Origin: a virus
DNA: 37,827 bases
UHGV virus genome: UHGV-0317053
Direction: 5' to 3' (one strand)
Below the pieces are notes generated by a model, which worked only from the letters and a program-made list of their open reading frames with translations, searched no databases and was not told the DNA's origin. The translations under genes and the position numbers were made by a program. Positions 2,239-37,195 of the stretch are shown here, piece after piece; the stretch's first letter is position 1; each line of letters begins with the position of its first letter.

Positions 2239-2313
2239 GTCCTCTTAGTTAAATGGATATAACGAGCCCCTCCTAAGGGCTAATTGCAGGTTCGATTCCT
2301 GCAGGGGACGCCA
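2239..2313 (+). tRNA. argW: tRNA-Arg (anticodon CCU)
   Basis: 75-nt cloverleaf: acceptor stem GUCCUCU/AGGGGAC, anticodon loop CUCCUAA, T-arm GCAGG-TTCGATT-CCTGC, CCA end; 3' end is G-CCA (discriminator G) rather than A-CCA. Confidence 0.95.
2299..2313 (+). other. attL core (ctgcaggggacgcca) within tRNA 3' end
   Basis: Matches attR copy at 37603..37617 with one mismatch (g vs a). Confidence 0.8.
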
Positions 2314-2474
2314 TTTATCAGTTCGCTCCCATCCGTACCAGTCCGCAAAATTCCCTGAATATCAAGCCTTCCGTAGATTCACAGTTCGTAATGGTTCGCG
2401 TCAGATCGTTGACAGCCGCACACCATGACGGGTAAAAAGTGGATAAAATAATTTTACCCACCGGATTTTTACCC

Positions 2475-3632
2475 ATGCTCACCGTTAAGCAGATTGAAGC
2501 AGCAAAGCCGAAAGAAAAACCATACCGCCTACTCGATGGTAATGGCCTGTACCTTTATGTCCCTGTATCAGGGAAAAAGGTATGGCAGCTTCGCTACAAG
2601 ATTGACGGTAAGGAGAAAATCCTGACTGTCGGAAAATATCCGCTTATGACTTTGCAGGAGGCAAGGGATAAAGCATGGACTGCGAGGAAAGACATCTCGG
2701 TTGGCATCGATCCGGTAAAGGCGAAAAAGGCTTCGTCTAACAACAATTCCTTTAGTGCAATTTACAAGGAATGGTACGAACACAAGAAGCAAGTCTGGTC
2801 AGTAGGGTATGCGACTGAACTTGCAAAAATGTTTGATGACGACATTATACCCATCATCGGCGGCCTTGAAATTCAGGATATTGAGCCGATGCAACTGCTG
2901 GAAGTAATCCGCAGATTTGAAGATCGCGGTGCAATGGAGCGAGCCAACAAAGCACGAAGAAGATGCGGCGAGGTTTTTCGTTACGCTATTGTCACTGGTA
3001 GGGCTAAATATAACCCGGCACCTGACCTTGCTGACGCCATGAAGGGATACCGCAAGAAGAACTTCCCGTTTCTTCCTGCAGACCAGATCCCGGCATTCAA
3101 CAAAGCACTGGCAACATTTTCAGGAAGTATCGTATCGCTCATTGCGACCAAAGTTTTACGCTACACTGCCCTAAGAACGAAAGAGCTTCGTTCCATGCTA
3201 TGGAAGAACGTCGATTTTGAAAACAGGATTATCACCATCGACGCCAGTGTGATGAAAGGACGCAAAATTCATGTGGTCCCGATGTCAGACCAGGTGGTTG
3301 AACTTCTCACTACGCTAAGCTCAATCACCAAACCAGTATCAGAGTTTGTTTTTGCCGGGCGCAACGATAAGAAGAAGCCAATCTGCGAGAACGCGGTATT
3401 GCTTGTGATCAAACAAATCGGCTATGAGGGTCTGGAAAGCGGTCACGGATTCAGGCATGAATTCAGCACAATTATGAACGAGCACGAATGGCCTGCCGAC
3501 GCCATTGAAGTGCAACTGGCACATGCCAACGGCGGTTCTGTGCGTGGAATTTACAACCATGCTCAGTATCTCGATAAGCGCAGAGAAATGATGCAGTGGT
3601 GGGCAGACTGGCTTGATGAAAAGGCATCATAG
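2475..3632 (+). CDS. intS: P4-family tyrosine integrase
   Basis: N-terminus MLTVKQIEAAKPKEKPYRLLDGNGLYLYV typical of P4-type integrases; C-terminal HGFRH box and catalytic Tyr region; directly 3' of the tRNA. ATG at 2475 chosen (385 aa); ORF-track start 2439 is an upstream in-frame extension. Confidence 0.9.
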   Translation: MLTVKQIEAAKPKEKPYRLLDGNGLYLYVPVSGKKVWQLRYKIDGKEKILTVGKYPLMTLQEARDKAWTARKDISVGIDPVKAKKASSNNNSFSAIYKEWYEHKKQVWSVGYATELAKMFDDDIIPIIGGLEIQDIEPMQLLEVIRRFEDRGAMERANKARRRCGEVFRYAIVTGRAKYNPAPDLADAMKGYRKKNFPFLPADQIPAFNKALATFSGSIVSLIATKVLRYTALRTKELRSMLWKNVDFENRIITIDASVMKGRKIHVVPMSDQVVELLTTLSSITKPVSEFVFAGRNDKKKPICENAVLLVIKQIGYEGLESGHGFRHEFSTIMNEHEWPADAIEVQLAHANGGSVRGIYNHAQYLDKRREMMQWWADWLDEKAS

Positions 3633-14963: not shown

Positions 14964-15466
14964 CTGTGTCGTCGCTCCGGCTTCAGTGATTTACGCAATT
15001 CCCGCGCCAGAAAATAGCGTGTCCAGCTGCGGTTCTTTTCAAGAGTTTCCACCATGAAGTTATTACGTGGAGCCAGTCGCCAGCCGCTGCCACCGGATGC
15101 ACCACGATGATGACTACGACGACGTTTTGCTCCTCCCCGGACACCAAAAAACAGAAACGCCGGATAGAAGTCACCAGAGATCATCCGGTTCCCCTTCCCG
15201 TTGCGCTGGTTAGGGGCAATGCGTGTCATAAAACCGGCTCGCTTTTTACTGGCTCTCGGCACCATATAACCAATCGAACGAGCCAGGCGTCCGGTCTGAT
15301 AACCGGGGTTTTCACCCGGTGCCGACCGCGCACGGCGCATCACCAGCCGACGGGCATCACGCATATGACGCTGCCCAATCGTGACAAACGCCCGCCGGAC
15401 ACGGGCGCGGTTAAAGCGCATCTCGGCGGGCTGCTGAACATCAACGTGAAAAAAGGGAGTCGCCAT
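14960..15466 (-). CDS. basic virion morphogenesis protein (HK97 gp10-like?)
   Basis: 168 aa, Arg-rich; position in head-tail joining block. Confidence 0.45.
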   Translation of the reverse strand: MATPFFHVDVQQPAEMRFNRARVRRAFVTIGQRHMRDARRLVMRRARSAPGENPGYQTGRLARSIGYMVPRASKKRAGFMTRIAPNQRNGKGNRMISGDFYPAFLFFGVRGGAKRRRSHHRGASGGSGWRLAPRNNFMVETLEKNRSWTRYFLARELRKSLKPERRHR

Positions 15467-31782: not shown

Positions 31783-32375
31783 GCGTTAGTTTCTCCACAG
31801 TCACGACACGCCACGGCGCCCGGAGCTGCACACTCGCGGGCGTCATTACTTTCTGAAATGCAAAAAATTTTGTAGACCAGTGCTGCATGCTCCTGCAGCT
31901 TCGAAATTGAGAGATACAGCTCGTCGTTAATTGCTGTCTTCTCATGCGGTTCCACCACACCGTCTTCGATTGCCGAACGAATCTGTCTGGAATAACTGCC
32001 AATCTGTTCAATGACTTCCAGCAGGCGCTGGTTAATATCGGCGTTGTCCACATCCTCGACGTCAGGAAGAGACACAAAGACGCCATTTGCAGACTGCGCC
32101 ACAGCGTCAGCAATGAAGTGAGTTCCACCAGCACGTTGCAAAATCATTGCCCATCCCAGCGGGAAAATCTGATCGCCATCGGCACGAAGGCGGTTAAATA
32201 ATGCGTTTTCTGTTACATCCAGCCAGTCAGCTGCTTCAGCGTAACCACCCGGCAACGCTGCGATAGTTTTTCTGACAGCTTTCACGTACCACTCAGGCTG
32301 TTTTTCTACTTTCCAGTGATGCTTACCCACGGTTAGCCTCATCGTTCTGTGGTTTCTGTTAATCGATTTATCCAT
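31779..32375 (-). CDS. CII-like regulatory protein (phage 186 CII / YdaT-type)
   Basis: ATG overlaps cro stop (ATGGATAA); sequence pattern resembles remembered 186 CII family. Confidence 0.5.
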
Positions 32376-32568
32376 TAGATTTTTCATAAAGCTCAGGTTT
32401 AAATGGCAACCGTCCGCAAGTTCTATATGCAGCTTCTGCTGCACGTCCTTTTGGAATTAACTGGCCCGGACGGTTTCGCCACTGATAAACGGCTTCAGTT
32501 GTTATGCCGAAAAAAGCAGCAACTTTCTCAATACTGCCGAAGTAGCTTTCGATATCGTCAGTTGTCAT
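32368..32568 (-). CDS. cro: Cro-like repressor
   Basis: 66 aa HTH protein divergent from cI; GGAGGG SD. Confidence 0.75.
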   Translation of the reverse strand: MTTDDIESYFGSIEKVAAFFGITTEAVYQWRNRPGQLIPKGRAAEAAYRTCGRLPFKPELYEKSNG

Positions 32569-32665: not shown

Positions 32666-33292
32666 ATGGAAACGGTTGGTCAGCGTATAAAAGCTCTGAG
32701 AAGAGTTACCGGAACGTCCCAGAAAGAATTGGGTAAATTTTGTGGAGTAAGCGACGTTGCTGTGGGGTACTGGGAGAAAGACATCAATACCCCTGGTGGG
32801 GAGGCACTTTCGAAATTAGCGAAGTTCTTCAATACGTCAATAGACTACATTCTTTATGGTGCTGAGTTTGAAGGCAAACTCGTCACAAACATGCGCAGAG
32901 TTCCTGTAATATCGTGGGTTCAGGCTGGGCAGTTTACTGAGTGCAGGGCAGCAGAAGTGTTTAGTGAAGTGGACAAGTGGGTAGATACATCATTAAAGAT
33001 TGGTGATAACTCATTTGCATTAGAGGTTAAAGGTGACTCCATGACTAACCCTAATGGCCTCCCAACAATACCAGAAGGCGCAACAGTGATTGTAGATCCA
33101 GATGCAGAACCTCGTCATGGAAAAATAGTCATCGCTCGACTTGATGGAACAAACGAAGCTACAGTAAAAAAATTAGTCATCGATGGCCCTCAAAAGTTTT
33201 TAGTGCCATTAAATCCTCGGTATCCCAACATCCCTATCAATGGTAATTGCCTTATCATTGGTGTAGTCAAAGGAGTTCAATACGAACTCTAA
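32666..33292 (+). CDS. cI: CI-like repressor (HTH-XRE N-domain plus S24 LexA-like peptidase C-domain)
   Basis: 208 aa; HTH (SQKELGKFCGVSDVAVGYWE), Ala-Gly cleavage site (QAGQ), Ser/Lys dyad region (GDSM ... KK). Confidence 0.85.
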   Translation: METVGQRIKALRRVTGTSQKELGKFCGVSDVAVGYWEKDINTPGGEALSKLAKFFNTSIDYILYGAEFEGKLVTNMRRVPVISWVQAGQFTECRAAEVFSEVDKWVDTSLKIGDNSFALEVKGDSMTNPNGLPTIPEGATVIVDPDAEPRHGKIVIARLDGTNEATVKKLVIDGPQKFLVPLNPRYPNIPINGNCLIIGVVKGVQYEL

Positions 33293-33305
33293 GACCTCTC
33301 TTCTC

Positions 33306-33373
33306 TAACTAAGGCACCGAACTAAGAAAAGTTTGGTGTTTTCTCTTGCCATAATAACTAAGTTAAGTTAGAT
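33306..33373 (+). promoter_or_regulatory. candidate early-left promoter/operator (pL/OL analog)
   Basis: three AACTAAG copies (33306, 33319, 33355) and -35 TTGCCA / 17 bp / -10 TAGATT (33345..33373) immediately after cI. Confidence 0.35.
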
Positions 33374-33454
33374 TTTATATCAAAGATAACGAACAGGCAG
33401 GACGCCCACGAAGTAGCCGCCTGGGGCATATGAAGTCCAGGATGATTCGTTAGC

Positions 33455-33480
33455 AACAAAAAAGCGCCCTACAGGACGCT
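33455..33480 (-). terminator. intrinsic terminator for minus-strand transcript of orf144
   Basis: 7-bp stem including one G-U pair on the minus-strand RNA, 4-nt loop, T-run; on the plus strand the stem has a C-A mismatch and no T-run. Confidence 0.5.
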
Positions 33481-33539
33481 TAGCTCTTTAACAATCTGGT
33501 CCCCATCAACAAGTAACTGATAACTTGAGGAGATGTGAA

Positions 33540-33746
33540 ATGCACAAAACAGAACCCAAAATCGTCGCGCCTGGCTACACAGATGAGGAAATTTATGAGT
33601 GGATGACAAAGAAGCTGGCAGCTATAAACCAGCTTCGTGAAGTGCTGTCTTATCGACAGGAAACAATAGACTCCTTAAAAAAACTGGATCAGGAAATCAC
33701 GGTTTTATCACAGGATGTTACTTTAGATATTGTGCAGACAAATTAG
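33540..33746 (+). CDS. hypothetical 68-aa protein at the first-gene position of the early-left operon
   Basis: GAGGAG SD 7 nt upstream of ATG 33540; acidic, coiled-coil-like; 3' end overlaps orf144 convergently by 29 bp. Confidence 0.5.
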   Translation: MHKTEPKIVAPGYTDEEIYEWMTKKLAAINQLREVLSYRQETIDSLKKLDQEITVLSQDVTLDIVQTN

Positions 33747-34152
33747 GATCCCATTCATTTTCGTCAAAATCATCAAAGTGATGAATTTGTGATCTCCAGT
33801 CTCGATAATCTAAAAATTTCTGGGCGGTTACGCTTATTTTATCAAGTGTGAGTTCATCCTGAATTGAAAGAAGAAGTTCATCAAATTTCATCTCATTAAT
33901 CTGTTTTGGCATCCAGTGATGCTTCATCAGAATAAGGTGAACCAGAGCCTTTTTCCCATTCAACTGATTATAGGGAGTGCCGAATTTCTTCCGGTGCTCA
34001 TGTAAGACAAGGTCCAAAAGAGTAAGTAATGTTGCCCTTGATTCAACTTTGCTTATTTCGACTGATGACACTACCCCACTGATTTCAATGCCCCGATACT
34101 TTCCAACATTTTCACAGTGGGATTTGTACAGCGTATAGATATTACCGGACAT
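33718..34152 (-). CDS. hypothetical 144-aa protein in AT-rich island (candidate exclusion/defense factor)
   Basis: lone minus-strand gene with AAGGA SD, own terminator; low GC relative to flanks; C-terminal RDWRSQIH (Rx6H-like) motif. Confidence 0.6.
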   Translation of the reverse strand: MSGNIYTLYKSHCENVGKYRGIEISGVVSSVEISKVESRATLLTLLDLVLHEHRKKFGTPYNQLNGKKALVHLILMKHHWMPKQINEMKFDELLLSIQDELTLDKISVTAQKFLDYRDWRSQIHHFDDFDENEWDPNLSAQYLK

Positions 34153-34436
34153 TTCTTTTCCTTTTGCGTTGTTGGGGATAACCAGATTAACCGAATCCTT
34201 GTTGTTGGGGAATAACTAGGTCCACCTCGCCTGATGTGGCTAAAAGCAGGCACATAACAGCTAAGTATTTTCAACCAGAGAGAATCCTTAGCGTTGTGGT
34301 GAATGCGGCTCAGCGCACGCGGGTTAAGGTTGAGGCTGACAGTCGACCTTCTGTGGATACCCACCCGCCTGGTGTGCAACCTTCGCCAGGCACCGGGAGG
34401 CACCCGGCACCACAACTTTATGCTGTGTGTAGTCTT

Positions 34437-34483
34437 GGCGGTACCAGCTTGTACCCTTGCTTCCGGCTGGTACCGTCCTTTTT
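34437..34483 (+). terminator. intrinsic terminator-like hairpin in early-left leader
   Basis: 12-bp GC-rich stem (ggcggtaccagc / gctggtaccgtc) with 17-nt loop, then T5. Confidence 0.5.
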
Positions 34484-34485
34484 AC

Positions 34486-34570
34486 AAAACAGAGAAGAGC
34501 ATCACCGGACGACGGGCTCATAACCCAATCCATCCGGGCGGCAGTCACCGCAGGTGTTCTTCTCTGTTTT
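34486..34570 (+). terminator. second long-range stem with A-tract/T-tract flanks
   Basis: acagagaaga pairs with ttcttctctgt across ~57 nt GC-rich loop, followed by TTTT. Confidence 0.35.
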
Positions 34571-34620
34571 GTGGAGAAACTAACCGACCTTGCAGGGTCG
34601 ATATGATGAGGAGCAGCAAA

Positions 34621-34983
34621 ATGGCTAGCGAACGCAGTACTGATGTGCAGGCATTTATCGGGGAGCTGGACGGCGGCGTATTTGAAACCAAAATCGGCGC
34701 AGTTCTCAGTGAAGTCGCTTCCGGTGTGATGAACACGAAAACCAAAGGTAAGGTCTCGCTCAACCTGGAAATCGAACCGTTTGATGAGAACCGAGTGAAA
34801 ATCAAACACAAACTCTCATATGTTCGCCCGACTAACCGCGGGAAAATTTCCGAAGAAGACACCACCGAAACGCCAATGTATGTCAATCGCGGTGGTCGCC
34901 TGACTATTCTGCAGGAAGACCAGGGACAGTTACTGACTCTTGCCGGTGAACCTGACGGAAAACTCCGCGCAGCAGGTCGTTAA
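34621..34983 (+). CDS. yfdP: YfdP-like protein
   Basis: 120 aa; GAGGAG SD 7 nt upstream of ATG 34621; ORF-track start 34303 is an unlikely GC-rich extension; precedes yfdQ as in K-12. Confidence 0.6.
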   Translation: MASERSTDVQAFIGELDGGVFETKIGAVLSEVASGVMNTKTKGKVSLNLEIEPFDENRVKIKHKLSYVRPTNRGKISEEDTTETPMYVNRGGRLTILQEDQGQLLTLAGEPDGKLRAAGR

Positions 34984-35048
34984 TATCGTTTTTAATTAAC
35001 TGATTATTTATCTCATCACTGAATATCTTTATATAGTGAGGACTTATT

Positions 35049-35873
35049 ATGTCTCAGAACTTAGACGCAACCGCAATTAATCAAATCCATGCCCTTATTT
35101 CTGCTCAGGGTGTTAATGAAATTATCAGTAAGATTGGTGCCGATGCTGTGGCATTGCCTGAGAATTTCCGCATTCATGATCTGGAAAAATTTAATTTAAA
35201 TCGCTTCCGTTTCCGTGGTGCGCTTTCCACTGCCAGCATCGATGACTTTACCCGTTATTCTAAAGATCTTGCAGATGAAGGCACCCGCTGCTTTATCGAT
35301 GCTGATAATATGCGTGCCGTCAGTGTGCTTAACCTGGGTACTATTGATGAACCAGGTCACGCAGATAACACCGCCACACTCAAACTGAAAAAGACAGCAC
35401 CGTTCTCTGCTCTGTTGTCTGTTAACGGCGAGCGTAACTCCCAGAAGTCACTGGCAGAATGGATTGAAGACTGGGCCGACTATCTTGTGGGCTTTGATGC
35501 TAATGGTGACGCTATTCAGGCAACAAAAGCGGCTGCGGCTGTCCGTAAAATCACGATTGAAGCAAACCAGACCGCTGATTTTGAAGATAATGACTTCAGC
35601 GGCAAACGCTCCCTGATGGAGTCTGTCGAAGCGAAGACCAAAGACATTATGCCAGTGACATTTGAATTTAAATGCGTTCCGTTTGAAGGTCTGAAAGAAC
35701 GTCCGTTTAAATTACGCCTCAGTATTATCACTGGCGATCGTCCTGTACTGGTTCTGCGCATTATTCAGCTGGAGGCGGTGCAGGAAGAAATGGCTAACGA
35801 ATTTCGTGATCTGCTTGTTGAGAAATTCAAGGACAGCAAAGTAGAAACCTTTATTGGTACTTTCACCGCCTGA
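35049..35873 (+). CDS. yfdQ: YfdQ family protein (DUF2303)
   Basis: 274 aa, same length and order as K-12 CPS-53 yfdQ. Confidence 0.7.
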
Positions 35874-36000: not shown

Positions 36001-36537
36001 ATGTCATTTATTAAAACTTTTTCCGGGAAGCATTTTTATTATGACAGGATAAATAAAGACGACATCGATATTAACGATATCGCGGTTTCCCTTTCAAATA
36101 TCTGTCGCTTTGCCGGTCATCTTTCGCACTTCTACAGCGTCGCCCAACATGCGGTTCTTTGCAGCCAGCTGGTGCCGCAGGAATTTGCTTTTGAAGCGTT
36201 AATGCATGATGCAACAGAAGCGTATTGCCAGGACATTCCCGCACCACTGAAACGCCTTCTTCCTGACTATAAACAAATGGAAGAAAAAATAGACGCCGTA
36301 ATCCGTGAGAAATACGGGTTACCCCCAGTTATGGGTACGCCCGTGAAATATGCCGATCTCATCATGCTGGCAACCGAACGCCGCGATCTCGGGCTTGATG
36401 ATGGCTCTTTCTGGCCTGTACTGGAAGGTATCCCGGCAACAGAGATGTTCAACGTGATTCCACTGGCACCGGGCCATGCCTACGGGATGTTTATGGAACG
36501 CTTTAACGAGTTATCGGAGTTACGCAAATGCGCATGA
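36001..36537 (+). CDS. yfdR: HD-domain phosphohydrolase YfdR-like
   Basis: HD-type His/Asp motifs (FAGHLSHFYSVAQHAV, MHDATEAY); 178 aa from ATG 36001. Confidence 0.7.
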   Translation: MSFIKTFSGKHFYYDRINKDDIDINDIAVSLSNICRFAGHLSHFYSVAQHAVLCSQLVPQEFAFEALMHDATEAYCQDIPAPLKRLLPDYKQMEEKIDAVIREKYGLPPVMGTPVKYADLIMLATERRDLGLDDGSFWPVLEGIPATEMFNVIPLAPGHAYGMFMERFNELSELRKCA

Positions 36538-36890
36538 ATGTTTTCGAAATGGAAGGGTTTCTTCGTGGGAGATGTGTACCGCGAGATCTGAAAGTAAATG
36601 AAACAGATGCTGAATACCTAGTGCGTAAATTCGATGCGCTTGAAGCTAAATGTGCAGCACAGGAAAACAAAGTAATACCAGTGTCAACTGAACTGCCACC
36701 AGCAAATGAAAGTGTTTTGTTATTCGATGCTAACGGAGAAGGCTGGCTAATTGGCTGGCGTTCTCTCTGGTACACCTGGGGACAAAAAGAAACCGGAGAA
36801 TGGCAGTGGACATTTCAGGTCGGGGACCTTGAAAACGTCAATATCACTCACTGGGCAGTAATGCCAAAAGCACCGGAGGCTGGAGCATAA
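36528..36890 (+). CDS. yfdS: YfdS-like protein (DUF551)
   Basis: 120 aa; order as in K-12. Confidence 0.65.
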   Translation: MRMNVFEMEGFLRGRCVPRDLKVNETDAEYLVRKFDALEAKCAAQENKVIPVSTELPPANESVLLFDANGEGWLIGWRSLWYTWGQKETGEWQWTFQVGDLENVNITHWAVMPKAPEAGA

Positions 36891-37195
36891 TGACCACTTT
36901 TACCGACAAAGAACTGATTAAAGAAATTAAAGAGCGTATCAGCAGCCTTGACGTGCGAAACGATATTGAGCGCCGTGCTTATGAAATCGCACTCCTATCT
37001 CTGGAAGTAGAACCAGATGAACGCGAAGCTTATGAATTATTCATGGAAAAGCGTTTCGGTGACTTAGTAGATCGTCGGAGAGCAAAAAACGGCGATAACG
37101 AATACATGGCATGGGATATGACTCTCGGTTGGATCGTCTGGCAGCAACGAGCTGGTATCCATTTTTCAACAATGTCACAGCAAGAGGTGAAATAA
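36890..37195 (+). CDS. yfdT: YfdT-like protein
   Basis: 101 aa; order as in K-12. Confidence 0.65.
   Translation: MTTFTDKELIKEIKERISSLDVRNDIERRAYEIALLSLEVEPDEREAYELFMEKRFGDLVDRRRAKNGDNEYMAWDMTLGWIVWQQRAGIHFSTMSQQEVK

Follow-up and report, generated by a model that had tools for sequence, protein, structure and literature searches.

A modular noncoding RNA leader with STnc100-like and DicF-like elements precedes yfdP in an SfV/SfIV-like prophage of Escherichia coli

Lambdoid phages of the SfV, ST64B, and LLS type have no N, which raises the question of how their early-left operon is expressed. The question arises for UHGV virus genome UHGV-0317053, the 37,827-nucleotide stretch analyzed here (the window), which is an SfV/SfIV-like lambdoid prophage of Escherichia coli with a noncoding leader at 34153-34620 directly ahead of yfdP. 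A preliminary description of the window had noted two adjacent hairpins and two terminator-like structures in this interval and had offered three explanations: RNA-mediated read-through into yfdPQRST-torI in the manner of HK022 put, attenuation, or a small RNA encoded in the segment. We find that the interval is a modular noncoding RNA leader that combines a variant of the STnc100/PasD family scoring below the Rfam threshold, a DicF-like terminator module, and a three-way junction, S2, that is absent from Rfam. The analysis maps the early-left promoter (PL), rules out HK022-type put at this locus, and gives the operon a set of concrete RNA elements, namely, a PL-leader RNA, a boxA, the STnc100-like core, the terminator T1, and S2.

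Results

The leader is structured and noncoding

The interval is 98 to 100% identical to phages Kati, vB_EcoM-689R6, SfIV, and SfV, and a 1.8-kb stretch around it is found with 99.9% identity in many E. coli chromosomes. Its GC content is ~0.545 to 0.58 across 34200-34600, versus 0.34 to 0.43 in the flanks. All of the structures listed in the preliminary description (the two hairpins, the terminator, and the long-range stem) were found at the positions that it gives, and its reading of the interval as a structured untranslated leader was supported by folding and by the lack of a conserved frame. The predicted fold of the whole 473 nucleotides (nt) beats that of its shuffles with z = -5.38 (0 of 100 shuffles), versus z = -2.85 for the antisense strand against its own shuffles; the subregions 34484-34625 and 34263-34486 gave z = -4.81 and -2.84, respectively. 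Four overlapping open reading frames (ORFs) had no Pfam match. A comparison of 19 divergent yfdP loci showed that none of the frames, on either strand, remains open in all of them over the 300 nt ahead of the gene, and tblastn matches of the ORF translations are fragmented over several frames. The conserved coding frame that would contradict an untranslated leader is thus absent, and a protein-coding interval was rejected on the lack of Pfam matches and the broken frames in relatives.

An ORF of 161 amino acids on the minus strand (34324-34809), antisense to T1, S2, and the yfdP start, matches phrog_3651 (E = 2.5e-107). Because its frame is not kept in divergent loci, phrog_3651 is probably a collection of miscalled ORFs from close relatives. 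SfIV gp34 and gp35 are similar overcalls across the RNA region.

The two hairpins are part of a pseudoknotted STnc100-like core

An Rfam scan at an E-value threshold, a check proposed in the preliminary description, returned one strong match in the leader, to STnc100 (RF02076) at 34263-34486 on the plus strand (43.4 bits, E = 1e-7). The alignment is full length, covering model positions 1 to 206 of 206, and it includes the conserved UGGUGAAU box and CACCGGGAGGCACCCGGCACCA, the closing helix, helices P1 and P5, and the terminator at the 3' end; the prophage location is also shared with the STnc100/PasD family. Our own core model, R3, scores 73.6 bits on the window copy, a sequence that was used in building R3.

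The core itself occupies 34293-34416 on the plus strand. Its closing helix, P0, pairs 34293-34301 with 34408-34416, and GAAU precedes the P1 region (34305-34323). An alignment of 36 representatives supports P0, P1, a long-range GCG/CGC pairing, and P5, and the helices P0, P1, P2, and P5 covary; one pair of P0 switches between AU (17 sequences) and GC (16 sequences). Overall, 96.9% of cells are paired, compared with 36 to 49% in slid controls, and none of 500 shuffles reached the covariation score.

The first of the two hairpins noted previously is P4 (34367-34391), an 8-bp stem formed by GCCUGGUG and CGCCAGGC with a 9-nt loop, and the second is P5 (34393-34407; CCGGG-AGGCA-CCCGG); the single base A34392 lies between them. 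The stem sequence of P4 varies among the 36 representatives, mostly closing right before ACCGGG, and a strict stem of at least 5 bp is present in 31 of them. The P4 loop pairs with 6 to 11 nt that follow P1, which creates a pseudoknot; in the window, AAGGUUG (34326-34332) pairs with CAACCUU (34377-34383). P4 and the pseudoknot have support in 31 representatives. The pseudoknot reaches at least 6 bp in 81% of sequences, versus 26% for mismatched combinations, and is an unreported feature of the STnc100/PasD family. In P5, the AGGCA loop is conserved while the stem covaries, to CCUGG/CCAGG in the Qin prophage and to GGUGG/CCACC in phage LLS and in loci L145, L152, and L154, variants that a fixed search pattern does not retrieve. 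It follows that both hairpins belong to one compact fold of five helices.

The window copy belongs to a divergent branch of the STnc100/PasD family

More than 120 viral contigs contain the 22-nt core CACCGGGAGGCACCCGGCACCA, in 96 distinct variants, and a sample of the contigs retrieved by the core motif passes the Rfam STnc100 threshold at 69 to 147 bits. Canonical copies carry a strong promoter (TTGACA-17-TAAATT) that ends ~7 nt before P0. Their positions include those following Q, those following stx2B, and those preceding holins or nanS-p. The literature agrees on these positions (PMC12370729; bioRxiv 10.64898/2026.05.13.724894), and PasD accumulates as a discrete, Hfq-associated small RNA (bioRxiv 10.64898/2026.05.13.724894). 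Some loci contain two or three canonical copies in tandem (L007, L018, and L026), and others have canonical copies beside clusters of three phage tRNA genes (L004 and L011).

The window copy represents a divergent subfamily that is recognizable by GUGGUGAAUGCGGCUCAGCGCACGCGG and whose members score below the Rfam threshold. It differs from STnc100 in the P1-P3 region, a difference common to ST64B, Buttiauxella, and Qin, and it lies in an early-left leader, not in the late region after Q or stx. The R3 model scores 70.6 bits in a Buttiauxella prophage (L131), 69 bits in ST64B, 59.7 bits (E = 1e-13) in the dicF-dicB spacer of the K-12 Qin prophage, and 29 to 33 bits in L145, L152, and L154; mEp460 and LLS give weak matches of 26 bits each. 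The Qin relative (L268, NC_000913.3 1647400-1650400, locus positions 2041-2192) has a closing helix of ~20 bp and scores 34.4 bits with the Rfam STnc100 model, and RefSeq annotates nothing there. Current annotation overlooks a branch of the STnc100/PasD family that scores below threshold, one copy of which lies in the well-studied dicBF operon of E. coli K-12. No conserved promoter was found ahead of the divergent-subfamily copies, and the sequences upstream of P0 are not conserved among the window, ST64B, mEp460, and LLS.

Just 5' of the closing helix, GUGCUCU(U/C)U(C)CGUU is conserved in many relatives (L131, L133, L139, L141, L080, L060, and L123). Its similarity is to the opening 7 nt of boxA; at the corresponding place, the window reads GAAUCCUUAGCGUU. 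In Phytobacter prophages, a tRNA-Ile(AAU)-like gene (L141, 2222-2300; L146, 1186-1264) fills the slot of the core, directly upstream of T1. Neither ARAGORN nor the Rfam tRNA model detects the core, and a tRNA-like core was rejected, with the shared genomic slot as the sole remaining evidence for it.

A conserved seed and terminator follow the core

A seed-like single-stranded stretch, GCUGUGUGUAGUC (34422-34434, plus strand), lies directly 5' of T1, an intrinsic terminator at 34437-34483 (plus strand) with a 13-bp GC-rich stem (34437-34478; -23 kcal/mol) and a U5 tract. A hairpin followed by U5-8 is present at the T1 position in all 24 of the yfdP-type loci listed. The seed is kept across genera, and it is kept in LLS even though the hairpin that follows it there is unrelated. 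Keeping a seed while the terminator behind it is exchanged is what would be expected if the two made up the 3' part of a small RNA that acts by base pairing. No target of the seed was found inside the window.

T1 bears a weak likeness to DicF, with which it shares UUGGCGGUAxCAGyUU. On 34424-34478, the DicF model (RF00039) reaches 19.4 bits (E = 0.28), short of its 48-bit threshold, and K-12 DicF itself scores 76.7 bits. The arrangement of the DicF-type module, a conserved single-stranded stretch followed by a GC hairpin and a U tail in a CI-repressed early operon, is present in the leader. Both operons are driven by a PL-type promoter under repression by a CI-like protein, in each of them a single-stranded seed stands before a GGCGGUAxCAG hairpin with a U tail, and Qin (dicBF) carries the clear relative of the core described above between dicF and dicB. 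DicF is made by termination plus processing through RNase III as well as RNase E. The two systems differ in that their seed sequences are not alike, the order of the modules is reversed (DicF, core, and dicB in Qin), and Qin lacks S2. The suggestion that the segment may encode a small RNA thus gains support: a core of the STnc100/PasD family and a DicF-like seed and terminator are present.

A conserved three-way junction lies between T1 and yfdP

S2 (34484-34572, plus strand) is a three-way junction with an outer helix of ~20 bp (34484-34503 with 34553-34572), a hairpin A with the conserved loop CGGGCUCAUAACCCAAU (34505-34537), and a variable hairpin B (34538-34551). In an alignment of 20 sequences from ~12 genera, 92.4% of cells are paired, compared with 33 to 50% in slid controls, and 18 of 34 pairs have changed on both sides. 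None of 500 shuffles reached the observed values for cells paired, both-side changes, or covariation score, and 7 of 500 reached the count of further pair types. Several G-U pairs are specific to the plus strand, which indicates that the structure is formed by RNA of the yfdP strand. S2 had no Rfam match at E <= 10, and no target of its conserved loop was found inside the window.

This region (34486-34570) had been taken for a second terminator, a reading that the structure contradicts. The T tract is the 3' arm of the outer helix, where it pairs with ACAAAACA, and since it lies inside the helix, S2 is not a hairpin-plus-U-tail terminator. When an intrinsic terminator is defined as a GC hairpin followed by an unpaired U tract, T1 is one and S2 is not. 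Beyond S2, the conserved GGAGAAACUAAC in the 34573-34623 region, a small GC hairpin (34585-34600), and the Shine-Dalgarno sequence GAGGAG (34608-34613), all on the plus strand, lead to the yfdP start codon at 34621.

RNase III processing helices occur in phage early transcripts, for example in the lambda N leader and the T7 early region. S2 resembles them in that a duplex of ~20 bp, almost without interruption, separates two functional units on the same transcript. It differs from them in having a junction and a loop that are both conserved, features that a simple site of cleavage would not require. The length of the duplex suggests that S2 may be an RNase III site or a 5' stabilizer of the yfdP mRNA.

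PL transcripts begin with a conserved leader RNA and an rrn-type boxA

The operator repeats of the cI-cro region, CTAAG-N4/5-(C)TTAG, recur at 33320-33375, where they overlap a plus-strand promoter, TTGCCA-17-TAGATT (33346-33374). We conclude from this recurrence that the promoter is PL and that its transcripts start near 33381, ~900 nt before the core. A promoter scan found no plus-strand site between 33934 and 35200; a degenerate promoter remnant, CTGATG-15-CATAAC, is located at 34232-34258.

The PL transcript opens with a 70-nt PL-leader RNA (33381-33460, plus strand) that contains the invariant AGGCAGGACGCCCACGAAGUAGCCGCC and two helices, P1 (33387-33393 with 33446-33452) and P2 (33420-33424 with 33437-33441). 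Its AGGCAGGACGCCNANGAAGTAG is found immediately behind strong early promoters, which represent many different immunity types, in >120 viral contigs and in numerous genomes. Among 40 aligned representatives, 11 of the 12 pairs in the two helices have changed on both sides, the covariation score is 0.645 versus 0.166 for shuffles, and 87.9% of cells are paired versus 20 to 41% with slid partners. The window contains a single copy (94.9 bits), and a model search found none in HK022, HK639, LLS, or mEp460. The PL leader had no Rfam match, and a literature search on its sequence returned nothing relevant.

Some 25 nt beyond those 70 nt lies a hairpin that is a terminator for the opposite-strand (minus-strand) gene; together with the boxA that follows, it occupies 33462-33495 (plus strand). 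The rrn-type boxA GCUCUUUAACAAU (= GCTCTTTAACAAT) at 33483-33495, ~100 nt after the PL start, is exact over 13 nt and is the only exact match in the window; a boxA of the nut/rrn kind is therefore present in the operon, outside the yfdP leader interval. The hairpin and boxA are conserved in L142, L145, L148, L169, L183, and L204 and may protect the long untranslated leader from Rho.

Neither an N-like protein nor a put element was detected

The absence of an N-like gene was borne out among the PL-operon ORFs scanned: the 68-amino-acid first ORF, yfdP, yfdQ, and two further ORFs (36528-36887 and 36890-37192) have no Pfam or function-annotated PHROG match to an N-like protein (the scan took in neither yfdR nor the final ~600 bases of the window). 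The 68-amino-acid ORF is not Arg-rich.

Put-like control of this N-less phage group has been suggested independently ("perhaps put-like") in a 2025 paper (PMC12315714); a separate literature search for put-like control returned nothing relevant. For the two hairpins, a put-like reading fails on sequence, structure, and position. We built a model, R1, from seven putL and putR sequences (HK022 putL and putR [NC_002166], the putL of HK639, CobraSix, S9-5, and phiEt88, and the putR of phiEt88), using the cryo-electron microscopy-based pairing described in PMC9378689, and searched with filters off. The best match in the window was 9 bits (E = 1.5) at 15317, and there was none in 33300-34700; a blastn-short comparison of the interval with the HK022 immunity region also returned nothing. 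The locus resembles HK022 in the lack of N, in the two hairpins one base apart, and in the terminator downstream. However, put is ~70 nt long, whereas the hairpins of the window make up 41 nt within a five-helix fold, and putL lies directly after PL and putR ~270 nt after PR, whereas the hairpins start at 34367, ~985 nt from PL. HK022-type put suppresses downstream terminators in cis and is blocked by mutations in the zinc-binding domain of the RNA polymerase beta' subunit. The PL leader, which seemed to resemble put in CGAAC and CAGGAUGA, was likewise considered as a put element and was not borne out by the R1 model.

Discussion

A proposed model in which T1 divides PL transcripts

We propose, with a probability of roughly 0.55, that the interval is the modular untranslated leader of the PL operon and that PL transcripts are divided at T1, giving rise to a small RNA and to a processed yfdP mRNA. 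Transcripts starting near 33381 would first cross, in antisense, a cassette of genes on the opposite strand before arriving at the core, the seed with T1, and S2. The core has no good promoter of its own. T1 would halt part of these transcripts. The halted RNA, trimmed by RNase E or RNase III, would yield a DicF-like or STnc100-like small RNA, and its production would be confined to conditions in which the repressor is inactivated. Transcripts continuing beyond T1 would become the yfdPQRST-torI mRNA, and the long helix of S2 would be cut or would serve as a 5' stabilizer. The analysis establishes what the modules are, their conservation and structure, the lack of a coding frame, and the location of PL; release of the small RNA, partial read-through of T1, and a processing or stability role of S2 are steps that we infer.

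Several observations weigh against this model. Because T1 appears to be a strong terminator, extensive read-through would require assistance, and an antitermination device common to all relatives was not found. T1, S2, and yfdP are kept without the PL-leader RNA in LLS and mEp460 and without any core at L129, L132, L137, and L148; since relatives lack one or the other, no single element can be named as such a device, and partial leakiness of T1 is the simplest assumption. The predicted RNase III cleavage of S2 derives from helix length alone. The STnc100 match falls short of the gathering score of 47, the window copy does not have the sigma-70 promoter that stands directly before the closing helix in STnc100, and weak independent transcription may arise from the promoter remnant at 34232-34258.

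Other explanations of the leader

Read-through of T1 could instead be set at the start of PL, by the leader RNA (33381-33460), the boxA (33483-33495), or both, acting as a new class of cis antiterminator or through a Nus-factor complex. We consider this unlikely, but the 33381-33495 region is a better candidate for RNA-mediated read-through than the two hairpins. The leader follows early promoters of many immunity types, in >120 viral contigs, its covariation is very strong, and the 13-nt boxA is exact, unique in the window, and kept in relatives. A strict test for terminator enrichment, the outcome of which depended on the leader subfamily and is confounded by relatedness, placed a strong terminator-like site on the same strand, at most 1.5 kb away, in 64 to 93% of loci of the CGAA-type leader subfamily, to which the window belongs. 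The rarity of downstream terminators in two other leader subfamilies (6 to 17%) speaks against this explanation. Moreover, LLS and mEp460 retain T1, S2, and yfdP in the absence of the leader, and there is no second leader copy on the PR side of the window. Complexes at an rrn-type boxA counter Rho and are not known to counter intrinsic terminators, which also weighs against this explanation.

A broader idea concerns the core. Its sharing of a slot with tRNA genes, the tandem arrays near phage tRNA clusters, and the copy in the dicF-dicB spacer suggest that it might do more than provide the body of a small RNA that acts by base pairing, and might serve phage operons as a structural unit in cis, whether as tRNA-like "punctuation" for processing or stability or as a modifier of polymerase. 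We offer this only tentatively and think it unlikely. If true, it would mean, together with the PL-leader RNA and S2, that early-left expression in the N-less phage group is controlled entirely by RNA. Phage LLS plates on K-12, which makes direct tests of the mapped RNA elements feasible.

The core plus T1 might also amount to a separate small-RNA gene that has a promoter of its own and, like canonical STnc100 and PasD, is expressed in lysogens. The promoter ~7 nt before P0 in canonical copies, a CTGATG-17-GATATT sequence before the seed and T1 at the Kosakonia locus L148, and the proximity of the Rfam alignment start (34263) to the would-be start of the remnant promoter all point this way. 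In the window, however, the scan found no plus-strand promoter across 33934-35200, the spacer of the remnant is 15 nt long and its -10 element lacks the final T, and the region upstream of P0 is not conserved among the window, ST64B, mEp460, and LLS. An independent gene is therefore improbable.

Quite improbable, too, is an action of the core in cis on RNA polymerase, put-like in effect but not in ancestry, that would allow passage of T1 and later terminators. It would account for a conserved pseudoknotted fold ~20 nt upstream of a conserved terminator in a phage without N among the ORFs scanned, for the presence of a core variant in front of T1 in LLS, mEp460, ST64B, and the window, and for the put-like control that specialists suspect in this group (PMC12315714). 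The put model is negative, however, and the four loci named above have T1, S2, and yfdP without a core, with the tRNA-Ile-like gene in its stead in Phytobacter. In Qin, the core comes after the DicF terminator; canonical copies are promoter-core-terminator units before lysis genes, and PasD is a discrete small RNA (bioRxiv 10.64898/2026.05.13.724894).

The attenuation offered in the preliminary description holds loosely, in that T1 would divide transcripts, but a ligand- or factor-sensing attenuator with the core as the aptamer that decides T1 formation, although favored by the elaborate conserved fold that sits immediately before a terminator, is very improbable, because the spacer to T1 varies, terminators are interchangeable (the LLS hairpin is unrelated), and the order is reversed in Qin, and it is further opposed by the two or three tandem copies at some loci and by the lack, on inspection, of any alternative, mutually exclusive pairing between the core and T1.

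Gene order and minor features of the locus

The immunity region of the window contains a cro-like gene (32368-32568, minus strand) and a cI-like S24 repressor gene (32666-33292, plus strand). Downstream of PL lie the 68-amino-acid ORF (phrog_1744; 33540-33746, plus strand) and a gene of the ECs1072 family (phrog_5286; 33718-34152, minus strand). The leader is followed on the plus strand by yfdP (34621-34983), yfdQ (DUF2303; 35049-35873), and, from 35974, yfdR and onward. In mEp460 (L123, 824-1012, minus strand) and ST64B (L124, 909-1097, minus strand), C4 antisense RNA and isrK lie side by side upstream of antirepressor genes on the PR side, as identified with Rfam; the window itself has no Rfam match to either RNA.

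The spacer between the ECs1072-family gene and the STnc100 match (34153-34262, plus strand) holds two direct repeats of TTGTTGGGGA(T/A)AAC and no convincing plus-strand promoter. The motif CCTGATGTGG..AAAAG.CAGGC is kept in the spacer region of phage LLS and of L148. The spacer is complementary to 33493-33513, and the resulting inverted repeat of 14 to 20 nt (33493-33513 versus 34169-34211) flanks the cassette formed by the 68-amino-acid ORF and the ECs1072-family gene. The same inverted repeat, with its sequence changed, is found in L148. It may mark the ends of an inserted cassette or form a long-range RNA helix that brings boxA near the core. At the left end of the prophage, a tRNA gene (2239-2310, plus strand) adjoins the integrase ORF (2439-3632) and is presumably the attachment site.

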